IMG/VR virus record: IMGVR_UViG_3300020458_000003
Direction: 5' to 3' (one strand)
From: an uncultured virus (IMG/VR IMGVR_UViG_3300020458_000003)
Taxonomy: Duplodnaviria; Heunggongvirae; Uroviricota; Caudoviricetes
Length of the DNA: 64,000 nucleotides
Part shown: positions 2,632 through 64,000 of the stretch, in pieces
Numbering within the stretch: position 1 is the stretch's first letter
Layout: each line of letters starts with the position of its first letter
Notes under the pieces: model-generated
The model's input: only the letters and a program-made list of their open reading frames with translations
Database searches by the model: none
What the model was told of the DNA's origin: nothing
Translations under genes and position numbers: made by a program

Positions 2632-3105
2632 ATGGCATCATTTAATCAAGTGATACTTTTGGGGAACGTCACGCGGGACATCGAACTAAAGTATCTACAG
2701 GGTGGAACTGCGGTCGCCGAGATGGGGCTCGCGGTAAACAGCAAGTACAAAAACAAGTCTGGCGAGTGGACGGATGATGTAGTATTCGTCGATATCACGT
2801 TATGGGGGCGGACCGCGGAGGTAGCGAGCGAACACCTAACGAAAGGCTCTTCAACGCTGATCCAGGGGAGGCTGAAGCTCGACAGATGGGAAAAAAATGG
2901 CCAAAAACACCAAAAACTCAAAGTTGTGGCAGAGCGGATGCAGCTACTGGGATCTAAGGATTCGAGTCAGCAGCAGACAATTCATTCAGCGTCCACCGAA
3001 AACCCGGAGGAAACAACAAGCCACAGTTCACTACCCGAGACAAGCCGTAGTGGCGTCGCACCGAGAGTCCCCGCCCGAGCTGCAGGCGAAGATTGTCCAT
3101 TCTAA
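2632..3105 (+). CDS. ssb: Single-stranded DNA-binding protein
   Basis: [21 protein letters not shown]...[12 protein letters not shown]...GRLKLDRWE, with acidic C-terminal EDCPF. Confidence 0.97.
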
Positions 3106-3123
3106 TGAAACAGAAGGACGAGA

Positions 3124-3636
3124 ATGCCTCTGACACCGAGACAGCGCGACATGTACGAGAAGTTCTCGTTGGATAATCCGTACTGCTGGGCTTGTGGCAT
3201 AGAGCCCGACGGGGCCAGGAAACGTTCCAAGCCTCTCGAAGGTCGTGAACCGCTCACCTACTTCCGAAATCTCGAAAACGCCCACATCGTCGGTGGTTAC
3301 AGTCTAGTCCATGACGTGAGAGTCCTGGCGCGACTGTGTAAAATGTGCCACGACCTGTCTCACAGGCTTCAAATACCGCACCCCAAAACCAAACAGAGAT
3401 ACTTGCCTTTACTTCGCTGCGACCACCTTCTTTGGCTGAAATATCGCCACGAGGGTGCTCCTATCGACCGGCAATTCATCCGAGACATCCGAGTGTCTCG
3501 GGTGGTCCCTGCCATATACAAACCACCGACATGGTTTCGGAAAACCTATGAGATGCGACGAGGACCGTACCCAGAATCTAGCTGCGTGGATCCAGCAAAC
3601 AATCTAGCCCAAAACGCCACAAGGAAAAAACAATGA
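3124..3636 (+). CDS. HNH-like Zn-binding nuclease
   Basis: CWACG...AHIVGG...RLCKMCHD pattern. Confidence 0.6.
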   Translation: MPLTPRQRDMYEKFSLDNPYCWACGIEPDGARKRSKPLEGREPLTYFRNLENAHIVGGYSLVHDVRVLARLCKMCHDLSHRLQIPHPKTKQRYLPLLRCDHLLWLKYRHEGAPIDRQFIRDIRVSRVVPAIYKPPTWFRKTYEMRRGPYPESSCVDPANNLAQNATRKKQ

Positions 3637-25403: not shown

Positions 25404-26429
25404 TTAAAAAAGAGTGAGTTGCGGAGACACGGTTTTAGCTACCGGATCAGCAACGTCGACAGGCGGCAGAGCTCCGGAGCTAAGCCCGATAGTTGCCGTG
25501 GCTGTCGGGTCTGTGGTCATCCACTCGGCCCATGTGGTTTTTCCATGCAGCCCTCGGTACGGTTCAAATTCTTCGCGTCGGAACGACGGACCAGCTTGGA
25601 ACCGTTCCTCTAGGGCCAGCGCGAACGCGATGTTTTCAGGTTCCTCGATGGCCATTGTTTTGAGTTCGCACAGCTTCGAGACTGGACAAAAAAAACAGGC
25701 TGATTTTCCCGGCCTTGGAAGTCCAGCAGCGTCGATCGACTCCAGGCAAGATTGGCGGTCCATGCCGTAATCGATCAGCGGGTACCACTGCTGGTAATCG
25801 TCTGTATTGTCGGGCGTGTAACGGCTGCTCCGCTTGTCTTCGGCCGCTTCGTATCCAATGGCCTCGGTAACTCTTGTGCCCTTTCGTGTGGCCACTTCGT
25901 GGTCTTCCCAGAGCCATCCGAGTAACTGTTGATATTTCCGTTGTGGTTCGAGCTTCCACGAGATCGAACAGCTGTGATTTCGATGGAAGGCCGGGCTAGG
26001 GAGCTGTTGAGTGTGCCAGGTCTGTTCGGCTAATGACCTATGCCCAGCCTTGGGGCAGCGACGGCGAACAATCACGATTGGAGGAAATCCAACCGATTGA
26101 CACCAAGCCTGGATCACATTGAAGGCGCGATAGGTGTGGGCCCTCTCGCTTCCCGTGTCTGCCCACTGGATGCAATCGGGACGGATGCCACGGCGATGCA
26201 ATTCGATCAGCATTGCCCAGGAGTCGACTCCGTTACCGAAGGCCACAACCAGTCTTTGGTTGTCGTGGTCGGGTCGTGGGTAGTCCTCGGGTGCTATTGT
26301 GGCTTCCAGGCTGTTCATGCGGCGCCGCTTCACCGGGACCAGTCCAGCCGCGCGGGTTAGCGTGTGGCCGCCGACGTCGTAACGTTCGAGTTTGATTGTC
26401 TGATAAAGTTTGGGGTCGATGGGCGGCAT
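25404..26429 (-). CDS. PAPS-reductase-like PP-loop protein
   Basis: VVAFGNGVDS, WADTGSE, CSISWK, YPLID and PGKSACFFCP; ends in QLTLF; probable start ATG 26429 after GGAG. Confidence 0.85.
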   Translation of the reverse strand: MPPIDPKLYQTIKLERYDVGGHTLTRAAGLVPVKRRRMNSLEATIAPEDYPRPDHDNQRLVVAFGNGVDSWAMLIELHRRGIRPDCIQWADTGSERAHTYRAFNVIQAWCQSVGFPPIVIVRRRCPKAGHRSLAEQTWHTQQLPSPAFHRNHSCSISWKLEPQRKYQQLLGWLWEDHEVATRKGTRVTEAIGYEAAEDKRSSRYTPDNTDDYQQWYPLIDYGMDRQSCLESIDAAGLPRPGKSACFFCPVSKLCELKTMAIEEPENIAFALALEERFQAGPSFRREEFEPYRGLHGKTTWAEWMTTDPTATATIGLSSGALPPVDVADPVAKTVSPQLTLF

Positions 26430-26523
26430 CGTGGCTCCAGCCGGGTCTAGGGTGTGTCGATGGTCAGTCAACAGATTTGATTGATCGGCAGCGTATCGGG
26501 CCGTGGAAAGAAAATCGTGGTTA

Positions 26524-26931
26524 CTACTGCTGGGCATCGTCGGAATCCTCCTCCGAGAGAATCGCATCAGTGTCGAGATCCAGGTGCGCGTGACGCATCC
26601 GACGAGGATTGTATACACGGAGCACTCTCCGGCCCGATTTAGACCGCCCTGGCAGCTCGGTTCCAGAGCTGGCCGGGACCCAGGCGTCCAGGCCATCGTG
26701 TACAGCCCGGGCAAACTCTGCTTGTCCCCGTGCTACCTTCTGTCCGGTACGAATCCCCTCTACCATCCGGAGGATGGTCCGAGCAAAACGGACCGTGCAT
26801 TCGATCCAGTCCGACAGTTGTTTCGCCGTCACGTCGCCGCCGTGGTGATCCTCGCAGGACCTCACCGCGTCGAGCAACTCCGGAGTTGTCATGCAGATGT
26901 TCGTTGCGTTGCTGGCGGTAGTAGTCCTCAT
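26524..26931 (-). CDS. Hypothetical early protein
   Basis: First gene after promoter copy 5. Confidence 0.6.
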   Translation of the reverse strand: MRTTTASNATNICMTTPELLDAVRSCEDHHGGDVTAKQLSDWIECTVRFARTILRMVEGIRTGQKVARGQAEFARAVHDGLDAWVPASSGTELPGRSKSGRRVLRVYNPRRMRHAHLDLDTDAILSEEDSDDAQQ

Positions 26932-27042: not shown

Positions 27043-27381
27043 ATGCGAAAACAGGGGCTCCTATTTGATTCACGAAAAGCGATGGACGCAAAATCCTCCT
27101 CTATGGATGCGGTCGAGAGGAACACACTACTGTCCAGCAAGGAAATTATCCTAGACGCGATTCGTGCTGTGCCTGTCGGCACGGAATTTACGACCGATTC
27201 AGTGTGGATGGTAATCCCCGAGTCGGTCCGCCAGGAAATCGAGCCTCGTGTGCTGGGTCCACTGATGACAATCGCGGCCAAACGCCGACTGATATCCAGG
27301 ACAGACCGCGTGGAGAATTCCACAATGGTGAGCTGCCACGCGCGGCCAAAAAGAATTTGGATCAGAAATAATTCTGGTTGA
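27043..27381 (+). CDS. Small phage protein (winged-helix-like)
   Basis: GAGGA RBS; FTTDSVW...EPRVLGP...CHARPKRIW. Confidence 0.65.
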   Translation: MRKQGLLFDSRKAMDAKSSSMDAVERNTLLSSKEIILDAIRAVPVGTEFTTDSVWMVIPESVRQEIEPRVLGPLMTIAAKRRLISRTDRVENSTMVSCHARPKRIWIRNNSG

Positions 27382-40203: not shown

Positions 40204-40554
40204 TTAGCGAGTAACCTCTGGAGGTTCAACAGTGGGTGCCGTCTCAGCTGCAACAGGTTCCAATTCGGGTTCGGGTTCGGGTTCCAATTCGGGTTCGGGT
40301 TCGGGTTCGGGTTCGGGTTCGGGTTCCAATTCGGGTTCGGGTTCGGGTTCGGGTTCGGGTTCGGGTTCGGGTTCGGGTTCGGGTTCGGGTTCGGGTTCGG
40401 GTTCGACTGGCTCCCCAAGACTTCCAAATCGGCTATCCACCTTCTGGCCAATTACGGCCAACAAGGCGAGCTTGCTCCCAGCGTCCAGTTCTGCCGTATC
40501 GAGTTTTTCAATCCAGAGGTCAGACGCCGCTAGTATTTGTCCCTTGATTCCCAT
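40204..40554 (-). CDS. Small protein with (EP)n tract
   Basis: GAGGA RBS; encoded over a hexamer repeat. Confidence 0.65.
40255..40405. repeat. (GGGTTC)n hexamer microsatellite with two CAATTC interruptions
   Basis: Read directly. Confidence 0.97.
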
Positions 40555-48094: not shown

Positions 48095-49135
48095 TTAGTC
48101 AGTTGCTGCTGTGAACAAAAATCCGCTAATGAACGCAGTTCCAACTCCAGAGAAGTCGTCCACAACTCGGCCCAAGTGGCGGCGGTTGTCGCGGTCGTGC
48201 TTCGATTCGACAGTCATCTCCTCTTTAAGGAAAATTGTCACCGTCGAGAATGACGGCGCGCCTTCGATCCCCTCCAGTCCACCGACCCGAGAACACATGA
48301 ACGGGGTGGTGTCAGGCAGGACATAGCTAGTGGCCTTCGTGGCGCCCTTTTTCGAGGTCACCTTGACGGCGTCTTCAATTGCCACTTTGTACCCGTAGAG
48401 ATTCTCAGGGAGACCAAACCGGTTGGCCCGGCTAAGGGTCTTCGTGAGCTCCTTCTCAGCTGACGGCGAGCCCTTAACATGGTCAACGATTTCCTGGCTG
48501 AGCGCGATTTTTTTCGCACATCCAGGACTCATGACAATCATCAAGTCTTCGGGCTTAACCGCACCCAGAGTGGACTTGAGGATAATCTCGGCACCATGGT
48601 CAAAGGACCTCTTAATGTCCTTGCGTGCCGTGGTGCTGACGTCCCACTTTCCAGTCACGCCAGAAATCGAACTCACAGCAGACGTGTGATCTGAGGCATA
48701 GCTTCCGGATGTCGTGGCTGTTGTCACGGCTACTTGAGTTCGCCATGTCATGCATCGCTGAGCTGCATATCTGGCATGATGCGCCAGAACATCCCAAGAA
48801 GCCTGCTCGGCGGCCAGTTCTCCCATACGGAATGGGAATGCATACCGTTTCGTGACATACGAGGACCAAGTGAAGGACTCCAGATTTCCATATCCGGTTG
48901 GAGCCTCACCCTCGTCCGGCCAGAAAAAATCACCGCCATTGGTATCCAGGATGCGGCCTGCCTGTTCGACTGTCATATCGACATAGCGACCTTCGTTCTT
49001 CTCGACCGGAACGTACTGAGCCCATTCCGGCAGCGCGAACGTGTCAGGATTTCGGCTGAAATCAACCACGAGGCCGTTGGAAGCCGCATGATCTGGAATG
49101 AACGTTGTGTATTGACCCGGAGTCGACGTAGGCAT
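48095..49135 (-). CDS. Major capsid protein
   Basis: 346 aa; GGAG RBS; follows scaffold and decoration genes; VKPEDLMIVMSPG...IVDHVK. Confidence 0.8.
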   Translation of the reverse strand: MPTSTPGQYTTFIPDHAASNGLVVDFSRNPDTFALPEWAQYVPVEKNEGRYVDMTVEQAGRILDTNGGDFFWPDEGEAPTGYGNLESFTWSSYVTKRYAFPFRMGELAAEQASWDVLAHHARYAAQRCMTWRTQVAVTTATTSGSYASDHTSAVSSISGVTGKWDVSTTARKDIKRSFDHGAEIILKSTLGAVKPEDLMIVMSPGCAKKIALSQEIVDHVKGSPSAEKELTKTLSRANRFGLPENLYGYKVAIEDAVKVTSKKGATKATSYVLPDTTPFMCSRVGGLEGIEGAPSFSTVTIFLKEEMTVESKHDRDNRRHLGRVVDDFSGVGTAFISGFLFTAATD

Positions 49136-49712: not shown

Positions 49713-51665
49713 TTAGGCTTTACCGTTACCGTTACCGTTGCCGTTGATATTGAAAAGAGTCTCTTCTTTAACAGACCCGCTGTTCTCAATCAGATTATCC
49801 AGCACCTTCGCATAGGTGACATTGCGCCCGGAGTTACGGTATCGCATGACCAGCTTCCCGGCCTCATCGGCGTGCTTTTCCTCTGCGACCTTCCGATTGT
49901 TTTGGCTCTTGCTGGGCTTTCGGAGACCTCTTGAAATCACTCCCGCCGGTACAGCGAAATCGCCGGAAATCTTTGTATATTTGGTGGGGATGGTCTCAGT
50001 CGTGTGCCGGTCGAACTGGTCCTCGGTGTAATCCCGGGTAAGATCCATTTCGTCATCTGGTTCAAGGCAATACCCTTCGCTCTCCAGACGCACAAAGACC
50101 GACTTCCGATTGGCGTCCCTTTCCGAGCTCTGGAGGGAATCAATCCGCTCCTCCTGTGACTCCTTCTCAACCTGCAGTCGAGAATATCGAGCCTTGAGGT
50201 TCAAATGGTCCCGATTCAACTTCGAGTATTTCTTCTTGAGACTCCCCTGTTCAGCAACAAGTTTTTTGTACTTTTGAACGGTGGGCTTCCCTTTCTTCGA
50301 GCATTTCGTAGATTTTCCGACGCTCATTTCGTCCTCGTTCATGGATCCTGAGGGCGTCGAATCGCCCGATTTTTCGGTTATGTCGTCGCCACCAATTGGC
50401 GATTTCCCATACCGTTGTGTGTACTTTTGCTTTGCGTCGTCGTCGTCGCACAGATACTTGAAGTACTTGCCGAGAATTTCTCGGTCTTCGACATCCAGAC
50501 CTTCCATGTATTTGTCCGCACGGGCTGGCGCCATTCCGTATTTCATGTACTGCCTCCCCAGTCCCCTGGCGTACATCTGATCCTCTTCGTCGAGGTCCAG
50601 CTCATCTCCTCCGATAGGTTCCGGGGGGGGGCCACCAATATCTTCTCCGAGTTCCTCGCCGCCGAGATCCAGTTCGCCTTCCATGTCCGGATCCTCCATC
50701 TCCAGTCCTGGATCACCGCCCATGTCTAGCTCATCCTCGTCGGGAAGCTCGTCCGTGAGCTCCATGCCCCCAAAAGCCTCAGGCCCAGGGGCCCCCATAC
50801 CAAGACCTTCCTCGGGCACTCCCAACTCACCGCCGCCCAACTCACCGCCGCCCAGATCCTCGGCAAGTCCTCCTTCAGGGATGAGATCCACCGGCTCCGT
50901 GTCGTCTATTGCAACCGTCGCCTGCGCCACTTCTTCTTGGATAATGGGCTTCATTGCCTCGGCAATTTGTTGGATTTCTGCTTGCGAAAGCGGCATGGTT
51001 TCACCTTTTTCGTGGCGTTGACGTTTGGTTTCGCCTGGAATGTACGTATTTGATCCACCAGGAGTGCTGGAGATCTCTTGGTACTTCAAACGCTGTCCGG
51101 GGGTCTTTTTGGAGTACCGAAGCGGACCGGGTGTGAAATAAAAGTGCGGATTGCCACCGACAGCCTTAGGGCGAGAGTAAATCATCCCCAGGTCTCGCTT
51201 GGGTGTTTCAGACCCCAGGATGGCGATGGGGTCGAAATAACGGTCCTCCGGTCGCTCTTCGGGCCATATTTCAACCGAACGACGAGGATTCCGAAGAAAT
51301 ACCTTTTCGTATTCCGGAAAGACCCAGAACTTTGTGAAAATGCACGGTCTTGGGCGCTCTTCCCCAAAGGAAGAGACATAGAACGGACCAGCAAGTCCGA
51401 TAACCGGAGGATCGTCGTTGGCGTGCTCCTTATCCTCCGCGTCTCGCGTATGTGCAAGGACCAGAGGACACCAATCTCCGCTGTCGCGGATGCGACGATT
51501 GCAATTGTCGGAGATGTGCTTTAGGAGCCTGTCGTCGTAGACAACACCGTCCTCACCTTCATGCTCATCAAACACAGCAACATGCTCGAACACTATGAAA
51601 TCACCGTCATCTGTCGGCGTTCCTCGTGTGCGAGTCGGCTGGTATTGATCAGTTGCGATGGGCAT
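49713..51665 (-). CDS. Prohead protease/scaffold fusion (Mu I-like, tentative)
   Basis: N-domain PLVLAH...PRRSVEIW...IAILGSETP; acidic linker; C-terminal coiled coil; upstream of capsid genes. Confidence 0.7.
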   Translation of the reverse strand: MPIATDQYQPTRTRGTPTDDGDFIVFEHVAVFDEHEGEDGVVYDDRLLKHISDNCNRRIRDSGDWCPLVLAHTRDAEDKEHANDDPPVIGLAGPFYVSSFGEERPRPCIFTKFWVFPEYEKVFLRNPRRSVEIWPEERPEDRYFDPIAILGSETPKRDLGMIYSRPKAVGGNPHFYFTPGPLRYSKKTPGQRLKYQEISSTPGGSNTYIPGETKRQRHEKGETMPLSQAEIQQIAEAMKPIIQEEVAQATVAIDDTEPVDLIPEGGLAEDLGGGELGGGELGVPEEGLGMGAPGPEAFGGMELTDELPDEDELDMGGDPGLEMEDPDMEGELDLGGEELGEDIGGPPPEPIGGDELDLDEEDQMYARGLGRQYMKYGMAPARADKYMEGLDVEDREILGKYFKYLCDDDDAKQKYTQRYGKSPIGGDDITEKSGDSTPSGSMNEDEMSVGKSTKCSKKGKPTVQKYKKLVAEQGSLKKKYSKLNRDHLNLKARYSRLQVEKESQEERIDSLQSSERDANRKSVFVRLESEGYCLEPDDEMDLTRDYTEDQFDRHTTETIPTKYTKISGDFAVPAGVISRGLRKPSKSQNNRKVAEEKHADEAGKLVMRYRNSGRNVTYAKVLDNLIENSGSVKEETLFNINGNGNGNGKA

Positions 51666-52474: not shown

Positions 52475-55400
52475 TTAACCGCTAACTTGATAGTGCGTCC
52501 TGCAGTAGCGCGTGACTGCCTCTCTATTGCGCGAATAACTCTCTGCTTGCGGCTTGTCCACAGAGACCATCTTTACGTTGACGCCAGTTTTGCGGAACGA
52601 TTCAGGCAGGTTAAAACTTCCTTGCGGCAGCTCTTCTGAAGACCCTCCGAGCCCACTGACCCACTCATCGAATTGTTCTCGATTCCCTCCTCCTCCTCCT
52701 GACATGATGGCAACGAGACGACCGCCGGGCTTCAGTTGCTTATATGCATGCTGAACGTGCGATATATCAGCGCCTTTCTCAAACGGCGGGTTCATCACAA
52801 TCCTGTCGTACTGTCCCTGGTGCGCTAAGAAGTCGCCATATTCGACATCATGACCCTTGGCAGACAATACCGGACTCAGCTCACGATTGAACTCCATGCC
52901 CTTTAGGTTGGCGTCTGGATGTTCGTCGCGAACAGCATCCAGGATATCGCCTTTGCCTGACGACGGCTCAAGGACATCATGCCCGGAGCGGATATCAGCC
53001 TCTGATAGCATCTGGTCGATCAAGCCTGGTGGCGTCGGGAAGAACCCTGGTATCTTGCGACCAATCAGGTCTCTTTCGGCTTTCGCTATCGGGTCCTCGG
53101 CTCCTTTTTTACCTCGGATCGGTATGTACTCTCGCAGCGCAGCGCGGAGTTCGTGCTCGTTCGTGATGCCCGCTGCATGAAGCCTCTGCATCGGCTCGGC
53201 AGCGCTTTTTAGGCTTTCGATGGTCCATTTGTGCTCCCTCGGATTCACCTTTCGGAGTTTAGCCGTGACGCTTTTTAACGCTTCCCATTGGTACTGACTC
53301 TTTAATCGTACGATACCGCGGTCACCCGCCTTCTCTGACAACTTTTTGAGGTAGTCACGTTCGTATTTAATCCCCTGCCTGCCTCGGAGCGCTTCGGACA
53401 TGCGATTGATATCACTGGACTGCAGTACGGGGTAGGGATAAGACGCATGATCCGCGTGTCCTGCCGTGATAGGCTCCTGCTGGGCATTTTCGTACGTCTG
53501 GTTGGGTAATTTTCTTCTGTCGCCTCCGTATTCTGTTTCGACGAGGTGGTCTAGCTTGTTCCACCTGGATCGATTCAAGACCGACTCTAACGCTTCGATG
53601 TGCGTACCGGCCGAAATACCGTCGAGGTACTTTGCCTGTCCGCTGTCGATAGCACTGGCTATGTTTCGCATGGTCGCAGCTCGCGCAATGTTCGACCGAG
53701 CCCTACCCTGAATTCCTGCCGCCATTTCAGCCTGTCGGGACGTGTTTGTCCTCCGGTCGGCAGAGAGGTCGGCATTGGCCGACTCGTGAAGCCTGTCCGC
53801 CATCGCATTCATCCGTTCGGCCGCGCTGGCTGACTTTAGCCGCTTATCCTCTTCCAGTCTTGCTGAAACGTCTGCATTCTCACCTTCAGTGAGTCCGAGA
53901 AACTTCTCACGGCTTTCTTCATTCTCGAAATGGAATCCGCCAGGAGTCCCCTTGTACGGCTTGTAATACCAGCCGCCAAGACGCTTAGCTTTGCTGCTCA
54001 GGTCACGAAATGTCTCACTGTCAAAGCGATCCTGGGGACTCGCCGTATAGACGTCGTAGCCTCTCTTGCTGTGGTAGTTGGTTGACAACTCAAACTCCGT
54101 GTTGCCTACCTCCACAGCCTGAACAGTCGCCTTCTCGTCCTCCTTTGCCTTTCGTGACTCACGAGACTTGTCGGCCGCCAACTGGTCGTACTGCTGTCGC
54201 TGGTCCGGTCTAAGATTCAGATATCCACCCTTTGCCTTCTCGGCCGTTTTGTACTCGTCAACCGTGGTGGGATTATTCAGCGAGCGCTCTTGGTGGGCTT
54301 TGTGTTCTTCGATTTGCTGCTTTCTATCCGCAATGCGTTCCGCGCGATCTGCCGCATGCTGTTTGATGTGTTCATCTGTCGTGTTTGCAACTGCCTCTGA
54401 CAGGGCTTCTTCGTGAGTTTCCCCCCTCGTGGGATCATAGCGAACTGATTCCCCGGTCACATGCAACTGGTCACGGATGCGGCCATAGATAGCATTCACC
54501 AGAGCTTCCTTGTTTCCACCCTGATACCTCGCGCGCGCCATCGGCCCTAAGCCGCTCAAAAGCTCCTTTTTGGTCTTGGTGCCAAGCTCGGCCTTTATTC
54601 CAGCACCGTTGTCCATGACCTTTGCATGGGCCGCTTTGAGGTCCTCAGCCGATATCGTCCCAGAATTAAGACGATCCATCACGTCATCGATATTTTGTAA
54701 GCTAATGCCGGATCCAGCTATTTTCTCCTGTTCTTGAGCTTTGAATACTTTCGGGTCGATCCCCAATAGCTTGTTCTCTGTCGTCCCGTGAGACTTCAGC
54801 GCCGAAGCGTACCGGCCGGTGAATCGCTTGTAATTTTTATTCCCAAAATGTTCGTTTTCACCAGCCACATCTCTTCGTAAATTATTGATGGCATGTACGA
54901 CGGCTTGATTCTTGTTGTCAGCCGTCCCGTGAATGTATCCCGACCCGTCGCGTTTCAAAATTCTCCAGTAGTGGCCGTGCTTCTCGACTCGACCCAACGC
55001 ATCCTCAATCTCATCTAAGGTCGGCATTCCCTGGGAGTTGATTTCGATCTTTGACGAGTCCCGTTCGGTCTCTTCGATCCCTTGGTGTGCTCTCCACTCC
55101 TCGACTGACTTGCGGATTTTGTCGCGACTAATGCCACCTTGAGAACTCATAAAGATGGATTCGGTGATGGTGCCCAGCGCTGCCGTCTTGGCTTCCCGGA
55201 CAGACTTCTTACCTGCCTCGGTTAGCATGGAGTCGAGATAGCTGGCATTGGCCGAGAGTTCTGGGGGTGCCGCCTCAGCTGGTGAGGATTCCGCAGTCGC
55301 CTCTGCCTTTTTAGAGACGATTTGCCACTTGCCAGGAGAATGCTCGCGGATAGCGTATTCCTGCCCTTCAATTCCCTTCATGCCGTCGGCCATTTTGGCT

Positions 55401-58400
55401 GCAACTGATTCACTGGCCAGGCCAGCATGAGCGCGATCCCAATCACCGTCTACCCATTCATCATTTGAAATCCGTGGGGTGTCATCGCCTTGACGAGCGA
55501 TTGCATCGTCGATCGATGATTCCTGGTCACCTTGAGAAACGGCAATCGGTTCATCTCTCTGCCGGTCCATAGCTCGCTGCCGGTCCATAGCTCGCTGCCG
55601 CGCGGGGGATGGTTGGGGCTTTGCCGCTTCTAGAAGTCGAGGCCGTTCTTCAGCTACCTCGGCGCGGAGTCCCATTTCCTTGATTGGATCCAGTCCGTGG
55701 CGCCGCATGGTGTCGCTGATATTCTCATTGTTGTCGATGGACTCTTGAGCTAGGTCGGTTGCTGCAGGTTGCTCTTTTCCTCTTGATGCTTGGGCACTAG
55801 CATTCTTTAATTCATCTTCTAGTAGACGTTTGCCTGAGGAAAGGTACTCAATATCTCGATTGAGAGCTCCCGCGCTGCCGCCGATATTTCTACCAGCCTT
55901 GACTCTCGCTTGGATTTTCTCGTCCTGTTTTTCGATGTCTTTCTCTATCGCTTCAGGACTTCGGTTAAAGCCTTCATCAATTAACGATCGAACGGCGAGA
56001 GCGATGCCATCAAAACCATCAGGAGCCAAGGAGCCGATTGTATGTGCTAAATCTGACGAACCCTGTCCTCGTTCGAGCTTTTTGAGGTTCGTCCTATTAA
56101 GCTTAAGGCCCTTCGATTCCAGGTAATCCTTGACGGCCTGCTCTGCTTCCGGCATGAATTCACTGGCATGGCGTTTTTCCTGCGGTTCTTCGGCCACTTC
56201 TTCAGTGGCAGCCTCTTCGACAGGATCCTCATCACCCCATTCCTTGGCGCCGTCCCCTGGCTCTGGGTTTATGTTCCCGCCCTGGCTCTCGACGATTGAC
56301 GGCCCGTCAAAACCTTCCATTTCGGCCGATTTGTTAAACTTCTCTAACTGTTCTCGCGCACTATCTACGCTGTCGCGGATCTTCTCCCAGGTTTCCCACT
56401 CGTAGCGGCCGTCCCCACCGAACTTCTTGTCTGCATCGCGGCCTTTTTGGAGTGACACCTCTGCGTCCTTGAGACCGTCTACGGCCTGGGTGACCATCTC
56501 CTGGACGAAGGCAGGCATGTCCTGAAATGTCTTTGTGGCTCCCTCTTCTGGTTCCGGTTCGGACGGTTCCTCGCCTTCGTTCTTGTCTTCACCAACCGGG
56601 TCACCGGGCTGCCTGGACTGTGTCGGGTAGTCCTCGATCGAGTTCTTTCCCATGTCATCGTTGGTGGCCGGTTCAAGATCCGACATGTTCACATAGTGCC
56701 GATTGCCCTTGATATCGATCAAACCGACACGGTCGGATCCCATTCCGCTCCCGCCACGCATCACACCGACAAGACCTGTCGGATCCTTAACCAGACTCCC
56801 ATACGACACTTCTCCCATCCGTGCGGATTGAGGAGACTCTGGTTCCTCCGCCGATTCTGGTTCATCCTCTTTCGGAGTGTAGTCAGGAGACCAAAACGGT
56901 TTCTTTGGTGCAAACTTAGACTCGTCGATATTTCCCGCATGCTGCTCGGTTAAAAAGTGATCAACAAGACGGTTGTAAGCTGGTTCGCCGTATCCATGGA
57001 TGTCAGAAGGGTCGCGATCTTTGCGGACAATGCCGCGACTTTTTCGGGCGTTGATGCCCCTTAAAACTGCCGACCGTTCAGAATCACTTAGACCCTCAAA
57101 CCACCTCGGGGCGTCTACTATCGCTTTGACCCGTTCGTCTCCCTTGACTTGGCGCGGGTTCCATTCTTCTTCCGGTTCCTCCGCCGCCTTCTCCTTGAAA
57201 CTACTCAGCAGCTTCAACGCCTTTTTCGGCTCCCATTTAACCATGGAATCAATTGCATCAAGAGCTTCCTTGGGGTCCCCACCGTGCTTTGCTATCGTGG
57301 CATCGGCTACTGCTTGACCCACCTCATCGAATAGCTCTTTAGCCTGGGCCTTGGCTTCCCTGTTTTCACTGAAGGCGACCTTTCGCTTATCTTTGGCGAT
57401 TTTCGCTTGCTCTCGCTTGTCGCGATCGATCTGGGAATCGAGAGACCCACTCCCGCGTTTATCGACCGGGACATTAGAAATGGCCGTATCCCCGCCAGTG
57501 TCGGTCACTGGATCGCCTTCCCGTTCTCGCTTGGCTTCCAATCGCACTTTTAATTCGTTATGGAGGTGGTCAAGCAGCTTCTCACCGTGGCCACGTCCTG
57601 CAGCATTGAAGTAGCGGTTATACGAAGAAGCGATATTGCGGTCGTAGTTCTTTCCTTGCAGTGAGTACGGCTTGGCTTCGTCTAGGACTTCCGCGTGCCG
57701 GTCAATCACACCACCAGTCGGCTCTTCGTTTGGCTCGGCGACTTCCTCTGCAGGTTTCGATTCTTCAGGCACAGGTTCTGGCGAACCCTCTTCCTCTGGT
57801 GCCGGTTCCTCTTGGTCCCGCCGCTCCCACCGAGAGTTGGCGTTAAGGACATAGGTCACGCCGCCCTCTGTCTTGGTTTCACCTTGTTGGTGTTGCGGCG
57901 TTTCAAACAATGGACCAGGAGAACCGAAGAGGTCCATCTGGCCTGGACTGGACTTTCTGCGCGCATACGATTCCGGGTAGTTGGCTTTCATGTACCGCTG
58001 GACGGCATCCTCGGCATACGTCATTCGGTCGTCAGACGGGTCGAATGTTCCTTGATTGTCTGATGACTTGATTTGGTTTGGTTCGAATGCGACCCATACG
58101 CGATGTTCATGACCGCCTCCCATGATGTTTCCGCCTGTGTGCGTTAGTCCGTCGTGTCCCATCTGGCGGAATAAGTCATGCCTTTGGTCCTTGCTTAAAG
58201 GTCTCATCCCACGAGCAACCTCTACTCCAACGTAATTGCTGATCTCGTCCATCAAGCCCCAAACGGAATGCTCCTGACCGCCCTGCATATTGGGGTGCTT
58301 CTCCACCATTCGTCGGTCATTTGCATACCTGCGAAGCACTCTAGCTGCCTTTCCACGCTCACCATGAAAATCACTGGATTCGATGGTATATGCCAGAAAC

Positions 58401-61400
58401 TCTGCTTGATCGGATGTAGCGATTTGGTCTAAGTCGAGAGGATTGCGGATGTTCAAGTAAACATTCTTGACTTCCGACTTAGGCAGCAATCCCTTGAGGT
58501 AGTCATGTAGCGGCTGTAGATCAGCCTCGTCTCGCATCGGTAATTCATCGTGAATAGTGGTCTGATTCAGCGTCCACTTACCCGGAGTTGCCGGTGAATC
58601 ATGTGCTATCCGCACGTTTTTATAAGGCTGCTGACCTGTCTTGTAGATGATATTGACTTCCGCACCACCAGTTCGCCCGCTGCCAAATGCCGGTTTCTCT
58701 TGCAATTTGTAGTCGTCCGGCAATAGTGAGATAATCTTGCTTTCAATAGCCGCCCAGTCTTTGGATTCAGGGTGATAATCGACTGTTGGAAGATTTCCGG
58801 CGTATTCACCCGCGATACTTTCATCTTCTGTGAAGTAAAAACCTGGGCCATACAGCAGAGAATTTGCGTCGCCTATTTTGGACTTATCGAATCGATCCCA
58901 GCCGCCAGAAGGCGTCCCATGGTAAGCGACAATAGGCTTTCCTTCCTTGTCAGCCACCTTACTCATATGGTAATTCTCTTGCGGCTCACCCGTCTCCAGA
59001 TCGACCACTTGAGAGGCATTCTCGGAGTCATTCTCCCAATCACCGAACCAAGACTTGAACGCTTTCGCGCGAACGCCGTTCTCTTGCCAATCTTGGGCGG
59101 CCTGCTCTGGGCTGTACTGCTCTTCGTCCGGGGATTTATCGGAATCGGAGGCTTCCCATCTGTCAATCATCTGTTTGGCGAACCACAGCTGACCGACAGC
59201 GTCCTGAGCCTGCCAGCCGCCAGGAGTGTCCTCGAAAATAGTCCATTCCTTAGATAGCGATCCATCCTCTCTTTCCAAGTGGCCTATTTGGTAACCCTTG
59301 TAGATGTACTCGCTTGGGCCAGTCTTTACAGGTTTCGATTCTTCAGGCACAGGTTCTGGCGAACCCTCTTCCTCTGGTGCCGGTTCCTCTTGGTCCCGCC
59401 GCTCCCACCGAGAGTTGGCGTTAAGGACATAGGTCACGCCGCCCTCTGTCTTGGTTTCACCTTGTTGGTGTTGCGGCGTTTCAAACAATGGACCAGGAGA
59501 ACCGAAGAGGTCCATCTGGCCTGGACTGGACTTTCTGCGCGCATACGATTCCGGGTAGTTGGCTTTCATGTACCGCTGGACGGCATCCTCGGCATACGTC
59601 ATTCGGTCGTCAGACGGGTCGAATGTTCCTTGATTGTCTGATGACTTGATTTGGTTTGGTTCGAATGCGACCCATACGCGATGGTGATGGCCGCCACCCA
59701 TACGGTCACCGCCGATATGAGTAATACCGTCGTGACCCATGCCTCGCAGTACTTCGTACATGGCATACTTACCGATCTGCGAAGACACAATGTTATACAG
59801 TGTCTCAACCTTCCCACTCGGGGTATCGATCTCTTGTAACGTCCGCCAAGAGCTCGACAACTTCTTGCGAAGAGTTTTCGTAACACTCTCTTTAAGTACC
59901 GGACTCATGTCCTTGTACCACCTGCCCCCCACACCGCTAGTTTCCATAGACTTAACGATTGCATCCGCATCCGCAGTCTTTAATACATTGATCCAATCCG
60001 AAACATTCTGATCGGAATCCAAGTCCAATGGTTTCCGGATATTCAAATAGACTTCTTTCGTTTCCTCTGTGCGTTGTCTTGTCACTAGCTGAAGAAGGTC
60101 AACACCATATCGTGACAACGCATTGTAATTGGCCGAATTCATGCCTTCCAAGCTGGCAGCATCTATTTGACCTTCATTTACCTTATTAAGGGTCCATGTA
60201 AGATTATCTACTGCCTCTTTAGCCATTTTTGGTGCAAGCTTACCCCACTTTCCATCGCCAGCCCCCTGTGCTTCAAGCTTTTTCTTTTCTATGGCAACTC
60301 CTATGAGATGTTTGAGCTTTTCTGTCGCTTCATCAACGTTATATTTCAACTTTGCTCGATAGCTACCGCCAGGAGACGATTCCTTCTGTTCATACGAACT
60401 AGCCACAGACTCATCTTCAGTGAAATAAAATCCCGGACCAAATAATAGGTGTTCTGGATTCCCCATCTTCGACTTATCGAACGCTTCCCAGCCGCCAACA
60501 GCTGTCCCGTGATACACCCGTACCGGCTTACCATCTTCACCATGCACCTGGCTCATATGGTAGTTTTCGGTCGGCTCCCCAGTCTCCGGACCGACCACTT
60601 GAGAGGCATTCTCGGAGTCATTCTCCCAGTCACCAAACCACGACTTGAAGGACTTCGCGCGGACGCCGTTCGCCTGCCAGTCCTGGGATGCCTGCTCGGG
60701 GCTGTACTGCTCTTCCGGGGCCTCTTTTTCTGATTCTGGAGAGGTGGTCTCGATTTCCGGTGTGGTCGCAGTCGCAGGTTTCGCGGCTTGTGGTTCTTCC
60801 CTGTTGGCCAGTTCCCACCGATGGTTTTGATTGAGCCTGTACGTGGTCCCGTTCTCTGTCTTCGTGTCTCCAACTTGGTGGTCTGGGAAGTCAATCATCA
60901 ACTGCTGCGCGTACTTCAGTAGCTGGTCGCTGTTCTTCGAATACTGTCCAGATCCCATATTGGCCTGGAGCAACTTCATAGCGCCCTTTGCAATCTTGGC
61001 CGCACCCTGCTTGCTCATGCCCAGCTTCTCACCGATCTCGGAAAAACTCATACCCTCTTCGAACTTCATGGACAGAACGGCGCGCTGGCGTTCCGGTAGC
61101 TCCTCCATCAACTCTTGGAGTTGTTCAACTAGCTCGCCTTCGCCCGCGAGTTCTCCGCCAGATCGCATCTTTTCATCGACCGGATTCATCGGAGCATCAG
61201 CCGCTTCTTGTGGGATCCCCGCAAAGTCTTCATCTCCTGGAACGGCTACCACACCACCGCGGCGAAGCTTCCCGGACGCGCGCTGTATACTCTGCAAAAC
61301 CCAGTAGGCAGCGTATTTATGGAAAGCCTTTCCTTTGCTTGGGTCGAATTTGTCAGCTGCATGTAGCAGAGCAATCGAGCCCTCCTGGAGGAGGTCGTCG

Positions 61401-64000
61401 CGGTCGTTCGACTTGTTGGAGAATCGCTTTGCAATATTGCGAATAAGACCGCCGTTCTTTTCTAACAGAGCCCCGGCGGCGTCTTTGTCACCAGACTGTA
61501 TTCTGGACACTAGATCTTCGTTAGATCCTGGCTTGAACGAAGGCGCAGGGGATCCTACTGACTCCGGCATGACGTCAGGACTAGCAGATTCCGGAACCTC
61601 TACAGGAGGAGCAGAAGGTGTAGCTACAGAAGCAGGTGCAGCTTCCTTGGGCTTGGCCGGAGTGGGTTTTTTCGCTGCGGGCGGAACAGCTTCTTTCGCG
61701 GGCGCTGCCCCTGATGAACCTGGATCGCTAGTAAACTGACCACCTTCGCCACGAGGGTGCTTGCCCTCTTCCCAGTCTGCCGACCCAGGAACAGTAGGTT
61801 CATCAAATAGAGACAGCTGTCGAGCATATCGCACAACTCGAAGAGCGCCCGCCCGTCCATGACCCCGCTGTCGCAGGAAGTTGTATAGACGACGATAGCT
61901 CCGCCGCCTCTCTCGCATGCAATGGAAGATCGGTGCCGAGTTACCACCTTCGATTATTTCGCAATTGCCAAACGCTTTCTTCAGAATCCCTTGGACCATC
62001 TGGGTGGCTTCGTCGGAGCTCATTCCGTCATACGCGCCCTTGCGAGGGCTATTCGGAAGATTGGCAATGCAGTGTCCATTAACCTCAGTCGACTCCAGCA
62101 TCTCCTGAATTGTCTTCTGGAGCTCTTGGAGGCTGTCCTGGACGTTTAGAACGTTCGAGGCATAAACGACGCAGTATTTTTCATTGAGTGCGTTAGAGTC
62201 GTGTACGGGGCTTTTGTTCTCGCCGTATTCGTAGGGCGTGACGTCCACACCGTGACCAGAGAGAATTCCAGCATGAACGGCGTGTTTGCCAGCACCGAAA
62301 TCTAGGACGGTGGCGTCCTGTCCCACCTGCTGGGCTACCTTCTCAGCAATCTTAGGGACCTTAGCATTGGGGCCAACGGCACCACCGGACCGAGAAGTGG
62401 AGTTTGCAACAGCCACTGCCGTGTCCTCGTGCGAAGCGGCCCGATACCGTCGCCATCTCGCTAGAGACTGCCGTGACCATTTTTTATAGCGAATTTTCCA
62501 TCCTCTCCGCATCGATCGCTGCCCAGCCTGGGACCAAGAATCGATAAGGGCTCTCGCCTCGGAGCCTGGCTGTTCCTCATGGCGTGAAAGCTGTTCCAAC
62601 GCTTCCGCCATGACTTCATCATGCCACGGCTGGATGTTCTTCATCATGGATTTCTGGAGAGTATTCCACAGTGCTTCAGAGGAATCACCCTGTCCCGCAG
62701 ACTCTCCCACATCCCAATCCAAAACATCCGGATGATATCTCTCTGCAGTCTCTGCCATCTCGTCAAACTGCCCTCCGTAAGGGCTGTGTTTCTGAAATGC
62801 ATCGTGATCACGACCGCGGTACTGTCTCAACGAAGCTAGGAACCTCTGCCGGGGCGATGCTTGCCGGGTCGTCTTTCCTGTGACCGGATCCTTTTCGACT
62901 ACCGTTTCGTTACCGAAGTACTGCCCAATGACGTCATTGATACCTGCTGCACGCCCAGCGGCCTGTTCCTGCTTTTGACTGTAAATATCTTCAGCTACAG
63001 ACTTTAGTTGCTGCTGCAATTCCGCATACTCTTCGTCGGAAGTCTCTGCGGACTGTGGCCCCAGGGCTTCCAGGATCGCCTTGCCTATGCGGCTCTTGGG
63101 ATTCACTCTGCGAACTTTGGGGGGCGTTTTTGGGTTTTCTGTGACATTTGAAAACTCATCAGAAGAGCCCGTTTCCTCCGTACCAGTTACTGAAGGAGGT
63201 GTCTGCTGTGGAGACTCAGCCGGCGAAACATCCTCTCTTGGAATCGAATACCGTACGTCCCAGTCATCGCTTTTGAACTTCGGCGGGATCATCACGACGT
63301 TTCCGCCGTCGGAAGAGAATCCAATCGCACCGTGTCCTAGGGTTTTCGATAGGTCGTGCAGTTGTCCGTATTCGGACGCTTCTGTACTGTCTTTGAGGTG
63401 GTCGTACAGCTCCCTCGCGTACTCATGCCCTAGCCGAGTGGTCTGGACGTGCCCCCTTCGCTTTGTGTCCCGCAACCGGTGTAGAGAACCTAGTAGACCC
63501 TGGATGGATGTGGGGGCTTGCTCAATATGTCCTCCAATGATGGCGTACTTTTCGTCGTTTGACTGTGGGGCTGGCTCATCGAGTTCGACATCGGACCCCA
63601 CGTCACTACCCCGGAGTTCTTCTCCGGGCTCTGCACCGGCAGCATCCTCCTGTCGCTTGGCCTCCTCTATTTCTCTCTGCCTATCCATAGCTCGCTGTCG
63701 CGAAGGAGACGGCTGCGGTTTTGGAACTTCAGAGTCCGGCGGCCTTACTGGCTCTGAGCCGACTCCACTAGAGTCGCCCTTGGCGTCGGGTAAATCTCGT
63801 GTCCTGCTGGCACTTTCATGCTCCGCGAGAATGGCCACCATTTGATGGCGAGCTTCTCGACTTGGCCTGAAGGACTCGTAGAGACTAAACGGATTATCTG
63901 ATCCGGACGCTGCTTGAGCGGCCTGGTCGACTTTGTCATGCATCTCTTCTGGCAAATCTGACTTGAGAATGTCGGCCAACTGGCCAACTACTTCTTGGGG
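52475..64000 (-). CDS. Giant polyvalent protein (>3840 aa, 5' end beyond the window): SAM methyltransferase, sigma-70 r2/r4, two ADP-ribosyltransferase-like domains, N6-adenine DNA methyltransferase
   Basis: Frame is open to base 64000. VLDFGAG...YASNVLNV (~61915-62400); DLLQEG..AL..AADKFDPSKG..F..YA.YW and LPERQRAVL...EIGEKLG (~60960-61525); YHGT..GPGFYFT..YLNIR.P..GHDG..WVAFEPNQIKS twice (~59600-60690, ~58020-59100); FFPTP..VLEPSSGKG..IVMNPPF (~52550-53060). Confidence 0.9.
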   Translation of the reverse strand, partial: PQEVVGQLADILKSDLPEEMHDKVDQAAQAASGSDNPFSLYESFRPSREARHQMVAILAEHESASRTRDLPDAKGDSSGVGSEPVRPPDSEVPKPQPSPSRQRAMDRQREIEEAKRQEDAAGAEPGEELRGSDVGSDVELDEPAPQSNDEKYAIIGGHIEQAPTSIQGLLGSLHRLRDTKRRGHVQTTRLGHEYARELYDHLKDSTEASEYGQLHDLSKTLGHGAIGFSSDGGNVVMIPPKFKSDDWDVRYSIPREDVSPAESPQQTPPSVTGTEETGSSDEFSNVTENPKTPPKVRRVNPKSRIGKAILEALGPQSAETSDEEYAELQQQLKSVAEDIYSQKQEQAAGRAAGINDVIGQYFGNETVVEKDPVTGKTTRQASPRQRFLASLRQYRGRDHDAFQKHSPYGGQFDEMAETAERYHPDVLDWDVGESAGQGDSSEALWNTLQKSMMKNIQPWHDEVMAEALEQLSRHEEQPGSEARALIDSWSQAGQRSMRRGWKIRYKKWSRQSLARWRRYRAASHEDTAVAVANSTSRSGGAVGPNAKVPKIAEKVAQQVGQDATVLDFGAGKHAVHAGILSGHGVDVTPYEYGENKSPVHDSNALNEKYCVVYASNVLNVQDSLQELQKTIQEMLESTEVNGHCIANLPNSPRKGAYDGMSSDEATQMVQGILKKAFGNCEIIEGGNSAPIFHCMRERRRSYRRLYNFLRQRGHGRAGALRVVRYARQLSLFDEPTVPGSADWEEGKHPRGEGGQFTSDPGSSGAAPAKEAVPPAAKKPTPAKPKEAAPASVATPSAPPVEVPESASPDVMPESVGSPAPSFKPGSNEDLVSRIQSGDKDAAGALLEKNGGLIRNIAKRFSNKSNDRDDLLQEGSIALLHAADKFDPSKGKAFHKYAAYWVLQSIQRASGKLRRGGVVAVPGDEDFAGIPQEAADAPMNPVDEKMRSGGELAGEGELVEQLQELMEELPERQRAVLSMKFEEGMSFSEIGEKLGMSKQGAAKIAKGAMKLLQANMGSGQYSKNSDQLLKYAQQLMIDFPDHQVGDTKTENGTTYRLNQNHRWELANREEPQAAKPATATTPEIETTSPESEKEAPEEQYSPEQASQDWQANGVRAKSFKSWFGDWENDSENASQVVGPETGEPTENYHMSQVHGEDGKPVRVYHGTAVGGWEAFDKSKMGNPEHLLFGPGFYFTEDESVASSYEQKESSPGGSYRAKLKYNVDEATEKLKHLIGVAIEKKKLEAQGAGDGKWGKLAPKMAKEAVDNLTWTLNKVNEGQIDAASLEGMNSANYNALSRYGVDLLQLVTRQRTEETKEVYLNIRKPLDLDSDQNVSDWINVLKTADADAIVKSMETSGVGGRWYKDMSPVLKESVTKTLRKKLSSSWRTLQEIDTPSGKVETLYNIVSSQIGKYAMYEVLRGMGHDGITHIGGDRMGGGHHHRVWVAFEPNQIKSSDNQGTFDPSDDRMTYAEDAVQRYMKANYPESYARRKSSPGQMDLFGSPGPLFETPQHQQGETKTEGGVTYVLNANSRWERRDQEEPAPEEEGSPEPVPEESKPVKTGPSEYIYKGYQIGHLEREDGSLSKEWTIFEDTPGGWQAQDAVGQLWFAKQMIDRWEASDSDKSPDEEQYSPEQAAQDWQENGVRAKAFKSWFGDWENDSENASQVVDLETGEPQENYHMSKVADKEGKPIVAYHGTPSGGWDRFDKSKIGDANSLLYGPGFYFTEDESIAGEYAGNLPTVDYHPESKDWAAIESKIISLLPDDYKLQEKPAFGSGRTGGAEVNIIYKTGQQPYKNVRIAHDSPATPGKWTLNQTTIHDELPMRDEADLQPLHDYLKGLLPKSEVKNVYLNIRNPLDLDQIATSDQAEFLAYTIESSDFHGERGKAARVLRRYANDRRMVEKHPNMQGGQEHSVWGLMDEISNYVGVEVARGMRPLSKDQRHDLFRQMGHDGLTHTGGNIMGGGHEHRVWVAFEPNQIKSSDNQGTFDPSDDRMTYAEDAVQRYMKANYPESYARRKSSPGQMDLFGSPGPLFETPQHQQGETKTEGGVTYVLNANSRWERRDQEEPAPEEEGSPEPVPEESKPAEEVAEPNEEPTGGVIDRHAEVLDEAKPYSLQGKNYDRNIASSYNRYFNAAGRGHGEKLLDHLHNELKVRLEAKREREGDPVTDTGGDTAISNVPVDKRGSGSLDSQIDRDKREQAKIAKDKRKVAFSENREAKAQAKELFDEVGQAVADATIAKHGGDPKEALDAIDSMVKWEPKKALKLLSSFKEKAAEEPEEEWNPRQVKGDERVKAIVDAPRWFEGLSDSERSAVLRGINARKSRGIVRKDRDPSDIHGYGEPAYNRLVDHFLTEQHAGNIDESKFAPKKPFWSPDYTPKEDEPESAEEPESPQSARMGEVSYGSLVKDPTGLVGVMRGGSGMGSDRVGLIDIKGNRHYVNMSDLEPATNDDMGKNSIEDYPTQSRQPGDPVGEDKNEGEEPSEPEPEEGATKTFQDMPAFVQEMVTQAVDGLKDAEVSLQKGRDADKKFGGDGRYEWETWEKIRDSVDSAREQLEKFNKSAEMEGFDGPSIVESQGGNINPEPGDGAKEWGDEDPVEEAATEEVAEEPQEKRHASEFMPEAEQAVKDYLESKGLKLNRTNLKKLERGQGSSDLAHTIGSLAPDGFDGIALAVRSLIDEGFNRSPEAIEKDIEKQDEKIQARVKAGRNIGGSAGALNRDIEYLSSGKRLLEDELKNASAQASRGKEQPAATDLAQESIDNNENISDTMRRHGLDPIKEMGLRAEVAEERPRLLEAAKPQPSPARQRAMDRQRAMDRQRDEPIAVSQGDQESSIDDAIARQGDDTPRISNDEWVDGDWDRAHAGLASESVAAKMADGMKGIEGQEYAIREHSPGKWQIVSKKAEATAESSPAEAAPPELSANASYLDSMLTEAGKKSVREAKTAALGTITESIFMSSQGGISRDKIRKSVEEWRAHQGIEETERDSSKIEINSQGMPTLDEIEDALGRVEKHGHYWRILKRDGSGYIHGTADNKNQAVVHAINNLRRDVAGENEHFGNKNYKRFTGRYASALKSHGTTENKLLGIDPKVFKAQEQEKIAGSGISLQNIDDVMDRLNSGTISAEDLKAAHAKVMDNGAGIKAELGTKTKKELLSGLGPMARARYQGGNKEALVNAIYGRIRDQLHVTGESVRYDPTRGETHEEALSEAVANTTDEHIKQHAADRAERIADRKQQIEEHKAHQERSLNNPTTVDEYKTAEKAKGGYLNLRPDQRQQYDQLAADKSRESRKAKEDEKATVQAVEVGNTEFELSTNYHSKRGYDVYTASPQDRFDSETFRDLSSKAKRLGGWYYKPYKGTPGGFHFENEESREKFLGLTEGENADVSARLEEDKRLKSASAAERMNAMADRLHESANADLSADRRTNTSRQAEMAAGIQGRARSNIARAATMRNIASAIDSGQAKYLDGISAGTHIEALESVLNRSRWNKLDHLVETEYGGDRRKLPNQTYENAQQEPITAGHADHASYPYPVLQSSDINRMSEALRGRQGIKYERDYLKKLSEKAGDRGIVRLKSQYQWEALKSVTAKLRKVNPREHKWTIESLKSAAEPMQRLHAAGITNEHELRAALREYIPIRGKKGAEDPIAKAERDLIGRKIPGFFPTPPGLIDQMLSEADIRSGHDVLEPSSGKGDILDAVRDEHPDANLKGMEFNRELSPVLSAKGHDVEYGDFLAHQGQYDRIVMNPPFEKGADISHVQHAYKQLKPGGRLVAIMSGGGGGNREQFDEWVSGLGGSSEELPQGSFNLPESFRKTGVNVKMVSVDKPQAESYSRNREAVTRYCRTHYQVSG
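57751..58105. repeat. 355-bp intragenic direct repeat (second copy 59329-59683)
   Basis: No differences seen by eye; offset 1578 bp, which is in frame. Confidence 0.93.

Follow-up and report, generated by a model that had tools for sequence, protein, structure and literature searches.

The 64,000-nucleotide stretch of an uncultured marine caudovirus analysed here (the window; IMG/VR record IMGVR_UViG_3300020458_000003) encodes a giant head protein made of several modules, and it raises the question of how the domains of such a protein could be released and find their targets. Proteins of this kind were defined as polyvalent proteins in Iyer 2017, with the proposal that their domains are freed by proteolysis (PMC5512222). 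A sequence-only reading of the window had pointed to motifs like those that bind the bacterial beta clamp, DnaN, lying next to Tyr-centred motifs at the module boundaries.

The giant head protein and the neighbouring protease

The giant ORF is on the minus strand (52475..64000) and open at the window edge, with 3841 amino acids inside the window. The near-identical record G003 has the full-length protein, about 4976 amino acids, with one module fewer. The window part encodes sigma-70 regions 2 and 4 (60968..61468, minus strand; Pfam PF04542 and PF04545, TIGR02937 above cut-off), an ART-PolyVal domain (59606..60538, end approximate, minus strand; Pfam PF18760), a second ART-PolyVal domain whose module is absent in G003 (58028..58948, limits approximate, minus strand) and a C-terminal methyltransferase with an NPPF motif (52556..53053, limits approximate, minus strand). 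Profile scans find two methylase-like domains in the protein, and the part outside the window adds a GNAT domain, as seen in full-length G003. Downstream of the ORF are a 650-amino-acid protease/scaffold gene (49713..51665, minus strand) and the major head protein gene (48095..49135, minus strand; phrog_1005, E 3.8e-5), so this is a head-morphogenesis locus. Typical features of a polyvalent protein are found here: large size, many domains, ART-PolyVal, methylase and GNAT among them, and a gene in the head locus. P1 DarA, DarB and DdrB are likewise giant head-locus proteins with this domain set, and the InPase, LPD1, PBECR3 and ddrB-ParB domains carried by this phage's relatives are also those of polyvalent proteins (PMC5512222). 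Judged by its domains and location, the giant ORF encodes a modular phage head protein of the polyvalent type.

No portal domain is found in this phage's giant protein by a domain scan that included full-length G003. Portal_Mu is fused to such polyvalent proteins in 7/17 and 3/17 homologues scanned, with the polyvalent protein joined to the C-terminus of the Mu-type portal in L020, L021, L023, L028, L030, L060 and L096, and in the same way in P0059, P0079 and P0081. P0153, a polyvalent protein of 4707 amino acids, has beta-clamp-like domains of its own at residues ~2965-3283. A Dam-like adenine methylase gene is directly upstream of the polyprotein in record G003 (L102 1061-1891). Elsewhere in the window, an IS1595-family transposase is found inside the phage genome (18386-19420, minus strand), and a tail-region ORF has a long Pro-Glu dipeptide repeat (40204-40554, minus strand).

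The 650-amino-acid protein consists of a prohead-protease-fold domain in its first 172 residues and a scaffold with many copies of [RK]Y[SA][KR]. The model of the protease domain (pLDDT 85) matches viral capsid maturation proteases at E 1e-5 in a BFVD structure search; its top PDB matches, T4 gp21 and herpes proteases, are weak (E ~0.09). His72 and Ser130 are invariant across 40 sequences. The family has no Pfam or PHROG match, and the annotated phage collection yielded no match to the protease, and with it no cultured relative. The scaffold tails of 53 homologues are also rich in [RK]-Y-[SA]-[KR], which occurs 81 times in 50 dereplicated scaffolds compared with 4.1 times when shuffled. From this distribution, the Tyr motif is a signature of the prohead-protease/scaffold gene. 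The predicted cut is most likely after the Tyr, because the next residue is small and P3 is often hydrophobic. Alternatively the cut may come after Tyr-x-[KR], in which case Gln would be the first residue of the new N-terminus.

Prohead-protease motifs are documented in head proteins, and T4 gp21 and SPN3US gp245 have the same protease fold, with a short motif that recurs in both scaffold and cargo (PMC10052503). Gp245 cleaves behind A-x-E, for the most part to remove propeptides (PMC10052503), whereas the Tyr-centred motif here would split a polyprotein into effectors. The candidate enzyme also differs from what is described in Iyer 2017, where processing is mainly by embedded metallopeptidases (PMC5512222); here it would be a separate prohead protease. 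Arg-rich stretches precede some Tyr sites (window 61830-61910 and 62440-62500), and these could be capsid-targeting or DNA-binding propeptides.

Clamp-like motifs and module leaders

The sequence-only reading had listed QLSLF, QLMIDF and two copies of QMDLF. All are present in the single minus-strand ORF, at positions right within one base. QLSLF (61805..61819, minus strand; amino acid 728), a canonical pentameric clamp-binding motif, follows the Tyr motif RYAR (Tyr725; 61820..61831, minus strand) and leads the sigma module. QLMIDF (60887..60904, minus strand; amino acid 1033) is hexamer-like with a non-canonical Ile at position 4; it follows KYAQ (Tyr1030; 60905..60916, minus strand) and leads the first ART module. 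The first copy of SYARRKSSPG-QMDLF (59504..59548, minus strand; Tyr1486, Gln1495) leads the second ART module, and the QMDLF of the second copy (57926..57970, minus strand; Tyr2012, Gln2021) leads a long C-terminal part that ends in the methylase. By a Tyr-site matrix trained on 665 Tyr from 49 scaffolds of other phages, the Tyr residues preceding these motifs rank 3 (QLSLF), 10 (QLMIDF), 9 and 8 (QMDLF copies 1 and 2) among the 115 Tyr of the protein. The motifs had been described as immediately following the Tyr motifs, which holds for QLSLF and QLMIDF, with Gln at Tyr+3, but not for QMDLF, with Gln at Tyr+9. Depending on the cut, a clamp motif "at the new N-terminus" may therefore mean one beginning at residue 1, 3 or 9.

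QLSLF is the only one of these motifs to match QL[SD]LF exactly. The pentamer rule Q-phi-x-[LM]-[FL] is followed by QLSLF, by QMDLF and by QLTLF from a protein discussed below; QGLLF, also discussed below, lacks an aliphatic residue 2. QLMIDF departs from the hexamer rule Q-phi-x-[LM]-x-[FL] in its Ile at position 4, and Ile or Phe at position 4 lowered binding in a test of pentamers (PMC11139829). QLMIDF nevertheless gains some support because Phe-4 hexamer-like forms (QLSFDF, QLGFTF, QLSFAF and QLGFNF) occupy the same site, after Tyr sites, in four homologues. By chance, Q[LM][SD]LF is expected 0.003 times in the giant protein, and two or more copies appeared in 0/5000 local shuffles; the broader Q.[SDG]LF is expected 0.054 times, with two or more copies in 8/5000. 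By these counts, the clamp-like motifs of the giant protein are a real, non-random feature of its sequence.

Two leader units recur after Tyr sites, an HPR motif and a hairpin-like G-[ED]-T-K-T unit (window 61733-61774 and 60815-60871; L102). The HPR motif, W-E-x-x-K-H-P-R...G-x-F, at 61733..61774 (minus strand) is one of five in the full-length protein. G003 has eight module leaders, five HPR-type and three hairpin-type, each preceded by a Tyr. A clamp-like motif stands between the Tyr and the leader unit in three of them and is absent in the other five. The order read from the sequence is Tyr site, optional clamp motif, HPR or hairpin unit, linker and effector domain. Full-length G003 has seven clamp-like motifs, four of them away from Tyr sites. 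In two other independent sigma-bearing homologues examined, QKEMF precedes the domain by 21 residues in L022, and the sigma modules of L018/L019 have no clamp-like motif nearby.

The two QMDLF copies belong to a direct repeat (59324..59623 and 57746..58045). The first of these copies holds three Tyr motifs, QMDLF and a hairpin-type leader motif, and the copies are 99% identical. Because both QMDLF copies belong to one duplication, the independent motif cases number three. The repeat contig has a read depth of 11-12.5, compared with ~6-8.5 for unique pieces, in 3/4 runs (~1.5-2x); in the fourth run its depth is 6.8. Since the depth is raised in three of the four runs, the QMDLF duplication is probably real. 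Read depth likewise makes it unlikely that the second QMDLF is an assembly artefact. G003, otherwise 99.9% identical, has one QMDLF copy and lacks the second ART module. The shorter form could be a true variant or a collapsed assembly, because the read contigs neither span the whole repeat region nor show a joint. The second ART-PolyVal module is flanked by direct repeats (window 58123-59329), and it is possible that this module is gained or lost by recombination between the leader repeats.

Recurrence in relatives and in other proteins

Conservation in homologues had been proposed as a check on the clamp idea, and the motifs are both enriched and recurrent there. The ORFs from 93 loci were split into those upstream of the protease, the scaffolds and those downstream, and dereplicated at 60% identity (133 to 95, 80 to 50 and 195 to 126, respectively). 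In the 95 upstream proteins, Q.[SDG]LF occurs 25 times compared with 1.75 when shuffled (maximum 5 in 200 shuffles), in 17/95 proteins; this phage's own record supplies two of the 25, and the set retains close relatives, L064 and L067 among them. The pattern is not enriched in the 126 downstream proteins (2 vs 1.56 shuffled) or in the 50 scaffolds (1 vs 0.41). Among the best 120 of 828 homologues of the giant protein, it occurs 54 times compared with 7.4 when shuffled, in 36/120 proteins. Enrichment over local shuffles is thus ~14-fold in the upstream set and ~7-fold in the giant homologues, figures to be read with the patterns having been picked after data inspection and with related phages sharing an ancestry that clustering does not remove. 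Reversed and substituted control patterns fall inside the shuffled range. The hexamer pattern by itself is not enriched (3 vs 1.4 in the loci and 5 vs 8.2 in the giant homologues).

Placement relative to Tyr was counted with this phage excluded and motif contexts clustered, giving 34 motifs from the loci and 93 from the giant homologues; some phages in the second group probably rely on different cleavage motifs. A Tyr is found exactly three residues before the Gln in 6/34 (null 0.28) and 6/93 (null 0.47). [RKQH]Y[ASG] lies within 13 residues upstream of the motif in 7/34 (null 1.05) and 13/93 (null 2.09), and downstream of it in 2/34 and 1/93. With the loose Y[ASG], the loci set gives 7/34 against 2.8-3.5, which is marginal, since 44 and 100 of 2000 null draws gave a count at least as high. 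A second recurrent form, Y-A-[RK]-x(n)-P-G-Q-x-x-L-F, resembles the window's QMDLF arrangement. The pairing of clamp motif with Tyr motif thus stands as a preference, the clamp motif lying downstream and not upstream of the Tyr, but not as a rule: 27/34 and 80/93 motifs lack [RKQH]Y[ASG] in the 13 residues before them, and most G003 leaders are motif-free. A clamp-like motif comes after just 2/32 and 5/40 strict [RK]Y[AS][RK] sites. The same unpaired majority gives no support to the idea that cleavage is required to expose the motif.

The motif profile, Q-variable-[GSD]-L-F-[GDE], fits DnaE1 motifs as well as the QHDLF and QPDLF of MuC. The choice of Asp or Gly/Ser at position 3 does not differ between the Tyr-protease phages and 42 LPD38-bearing proteins (p = 0.66). 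In the same host-flavour comparison, DMF is found in 0/38 vs 3/21, with p = 0.04 for a feature chosen after the data were seen, and the comparison lends the clamp reading no support.

Clamp use had also been suggested to extend beyond the giant protein. ORF 25404..26714 does match the PAPS-reductase family and does end in QLTLF (25407..25421, minus strand). A motif lies in the last 25 residues of 13 of the best 150 of 2460 PAPS-reductase-like homologues, compared with 0.4 when shuffled, and 2/4 of the closest among those best 150 carry it at the C-terminus. These homologues come from a representative search, the viral contigs having no match to the gene. The suggestion of broader clamp use is therefore supported for a minority of this family. 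ORF 27043 begins MRKQGLLF as reported, with QGLLF at 27052..27066 on the plus strand, and sequence searches for its homologues returned just ORF 27043 itself, with unnamed viral clusters as its matches in the Atlas.

The host clamp and the meaning of the motifs

A Pirellulales MAG has a contig of 153 kb that includes a head module related to this one (41% for the protease, 47% for the capsid). Six chosen ORFs of that contig were scanned, and DUF1559, PSD1, PSCyt2 and DUF1501 genes were found, families that we take to be typical of planctomycetes. Through this one related provirus, the sequences support a planctomycete host for the phage. The DnaE of the MAG has QKGLFD aligned with the clamp motif of E. 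coli alpha, and the QKGLF form also occurs in phage proteins of L003, L012 and L023. Its DnaN, which belongs to the host of the related provirus and may not be that of this phage's host, keeps most peptide-pocket residues and differs at His175, Arg246 and Asn320 (alignment numbering). A clamp domain is encoded in 0/26 related virus records, and in 0/8 of those at least 90% complete.

Several known systems are similar in part. Cellular clamp clients (DnaE, PolC, Pol II, Pol IV and Hda) also use Q-phi-x-[LM]-[FL], often followed by an acidic residue (PMC11139829, PMC3919608); the DnaE1 motif is Q..LF, and that of B. subtilis DnaE is QMGLF (PMC3919608). These clients have one or two motifs (PMC11139829, PMC3919608), while one of the phage proteins may carry as many as about seven, and some of these lie where cleavage is presumed to occur. 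Phage Mu offers a phage transcription factor, MuC/Mor, with Q-x-D-L-F at the extreme N-terminus and the host clamp as partner; MuC uses N- and C-terminal motifs, and QHDLF and QPDLF were tested (PMC12867686). MuC, however, is a small activator that stands by itself and is produced in the course of infection (PMC12867686), whereas here the motif leads a sigma-70 domain and enzymes of a probable virion cargo. T4 gp55/gp33 with gp45 likewise couples a sigma-like factor to a sliding clamp, but T4 uses its own clamp and does so for late genes (PMC12867686), whereas the 26 relatives of this phage that were searched yielded none and the timing would be early. The words "clamp" and "sigma" are absent from the main text of Iyer 2017, supplement excluded (PMC5512222). 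"Clamp" is absent from the available part of PMC9503650, and that of PMC7824862 mentions clamps in other contexts only. A literature search that reached few subscription papers turned up no description of clamp motifs in phage proteins that are polyvalent or packaged in the head. One published study reportedly concerns transposases and the clamp.

On the sequence evidence, we regard it as reasonably probable that the motifs are optional docking tags for the host clamp that stay with released modules. In the mechanism that we propose, the neighbouring prohead protease would cut the giant protein at Tyr sites during head maturation, and, from the known biology of polyvalent proteins, the released pieces would be injected with the phage DNA. 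The motif would be positioned after the cut so that the module keeps it. Pieces led by QLSLF or QMDLF, and more weakly that led by QLMIDF, would bind the beta clamp of the host through its peptide pocket. Docking would gather the sigma factor, the ADP-ribosyltransferases and the piece that bears the methylase at DNA loaded with clamps, which here would be phage DNA that is nicked or being replicated, or the forks of the host. Cleavage itself is probably not an unmasking switch, because internal DnaE motifs work and acetylation of the N-terminal Gln of a peptide increases its clamp affinity (PMC11139829). We hold more tentatively, as a possibility that falls short of an expectation, that planctomycete phages use a leader code of protease site plus host-clamp tag, by which injected, clamp-tethered sigma, ART and methylase modules act, from the earliest minutes of infection, on DNA wherever it carries the host clamp.

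Other readings of the same motifs have to be weighed. Q-x-x-L-F might instead serve as a signal for head assembly or ejection, or extend the HPR motif at its N-terminal end, and resemble a clamp motif by convergence only. In L021, L028, L093 and L096, the Phe of the clamp-like motif doubles as the aromatic residue that opens the HPR motif, and in the loci the enrichment is limited to head-region proteins. In the giant protein, however, QLSLF stands 10 residues ahead of the HPR motif, and 5/8 leaders do without a motif altogether. The scaffolds show no enrichment, while the C-terminus of the presumably non-virion PAPS-reductase-like family does, and the motif matches the host DnaE form; we consider convergence fairly unlikely. 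It is also unlikely, in our estimate slightly more so, that the motifs bind the clamp late, before or without cleavage, tethering the uncut protein to fresh phage DNA and linking replication to packaging. The Portal_Mu fusions in scanned homologues and the many motifs distant from Tyr sites would suit such a tether, and T4 packaging is reportedly clamp-dependent (PMC12867686). This phage's protein, though, has no portal domain, and the motif favours the downstream side of Tyr (13 vs 1 and 7 vs 2), as expected if it is kept by a released piece.

The sequence-only reading had left open inhibition of the host clamp as well as targeting. Competition for the clamp that stalls host replication is imaginable for a protein with seven motifs in its G003 version, and over-expressed MuC kills via its clamp motifs (PMC12867686). 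For virion cargo, which is presumably low in copy number, targeting seems likelier than inhibition. Position 2 or 4 of many motifs is also occupied by a low-affinity residue, and every one is joined to a DNA-acting or transcription domain, which argues for targeting, and we judge a stalling role improbable. As for chance matches within low-complexity linkers, the motif is short, the patterns were post hoc, and QLMIDF or QGLLF taken singly could be accidental; set against the enrichment over local shuffles and the background level of the control patterns, chance as the general explanation is very hard to credit.

Docking tags that stay with released modules would offer a candidate answer to how injected polyvalent domains are released and reach their targets. 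For a widespread group of uncultured phages that probably infect planctomycetes, the locus supplies a candidate cleavage motif and a candidate protease. If the leader code is true, the virion would deliver clamp-activated early transcription and fork-targeted modification, and the use of the clamp by phages would extend from late transcription, as in Mu and T4, to virion cargo.
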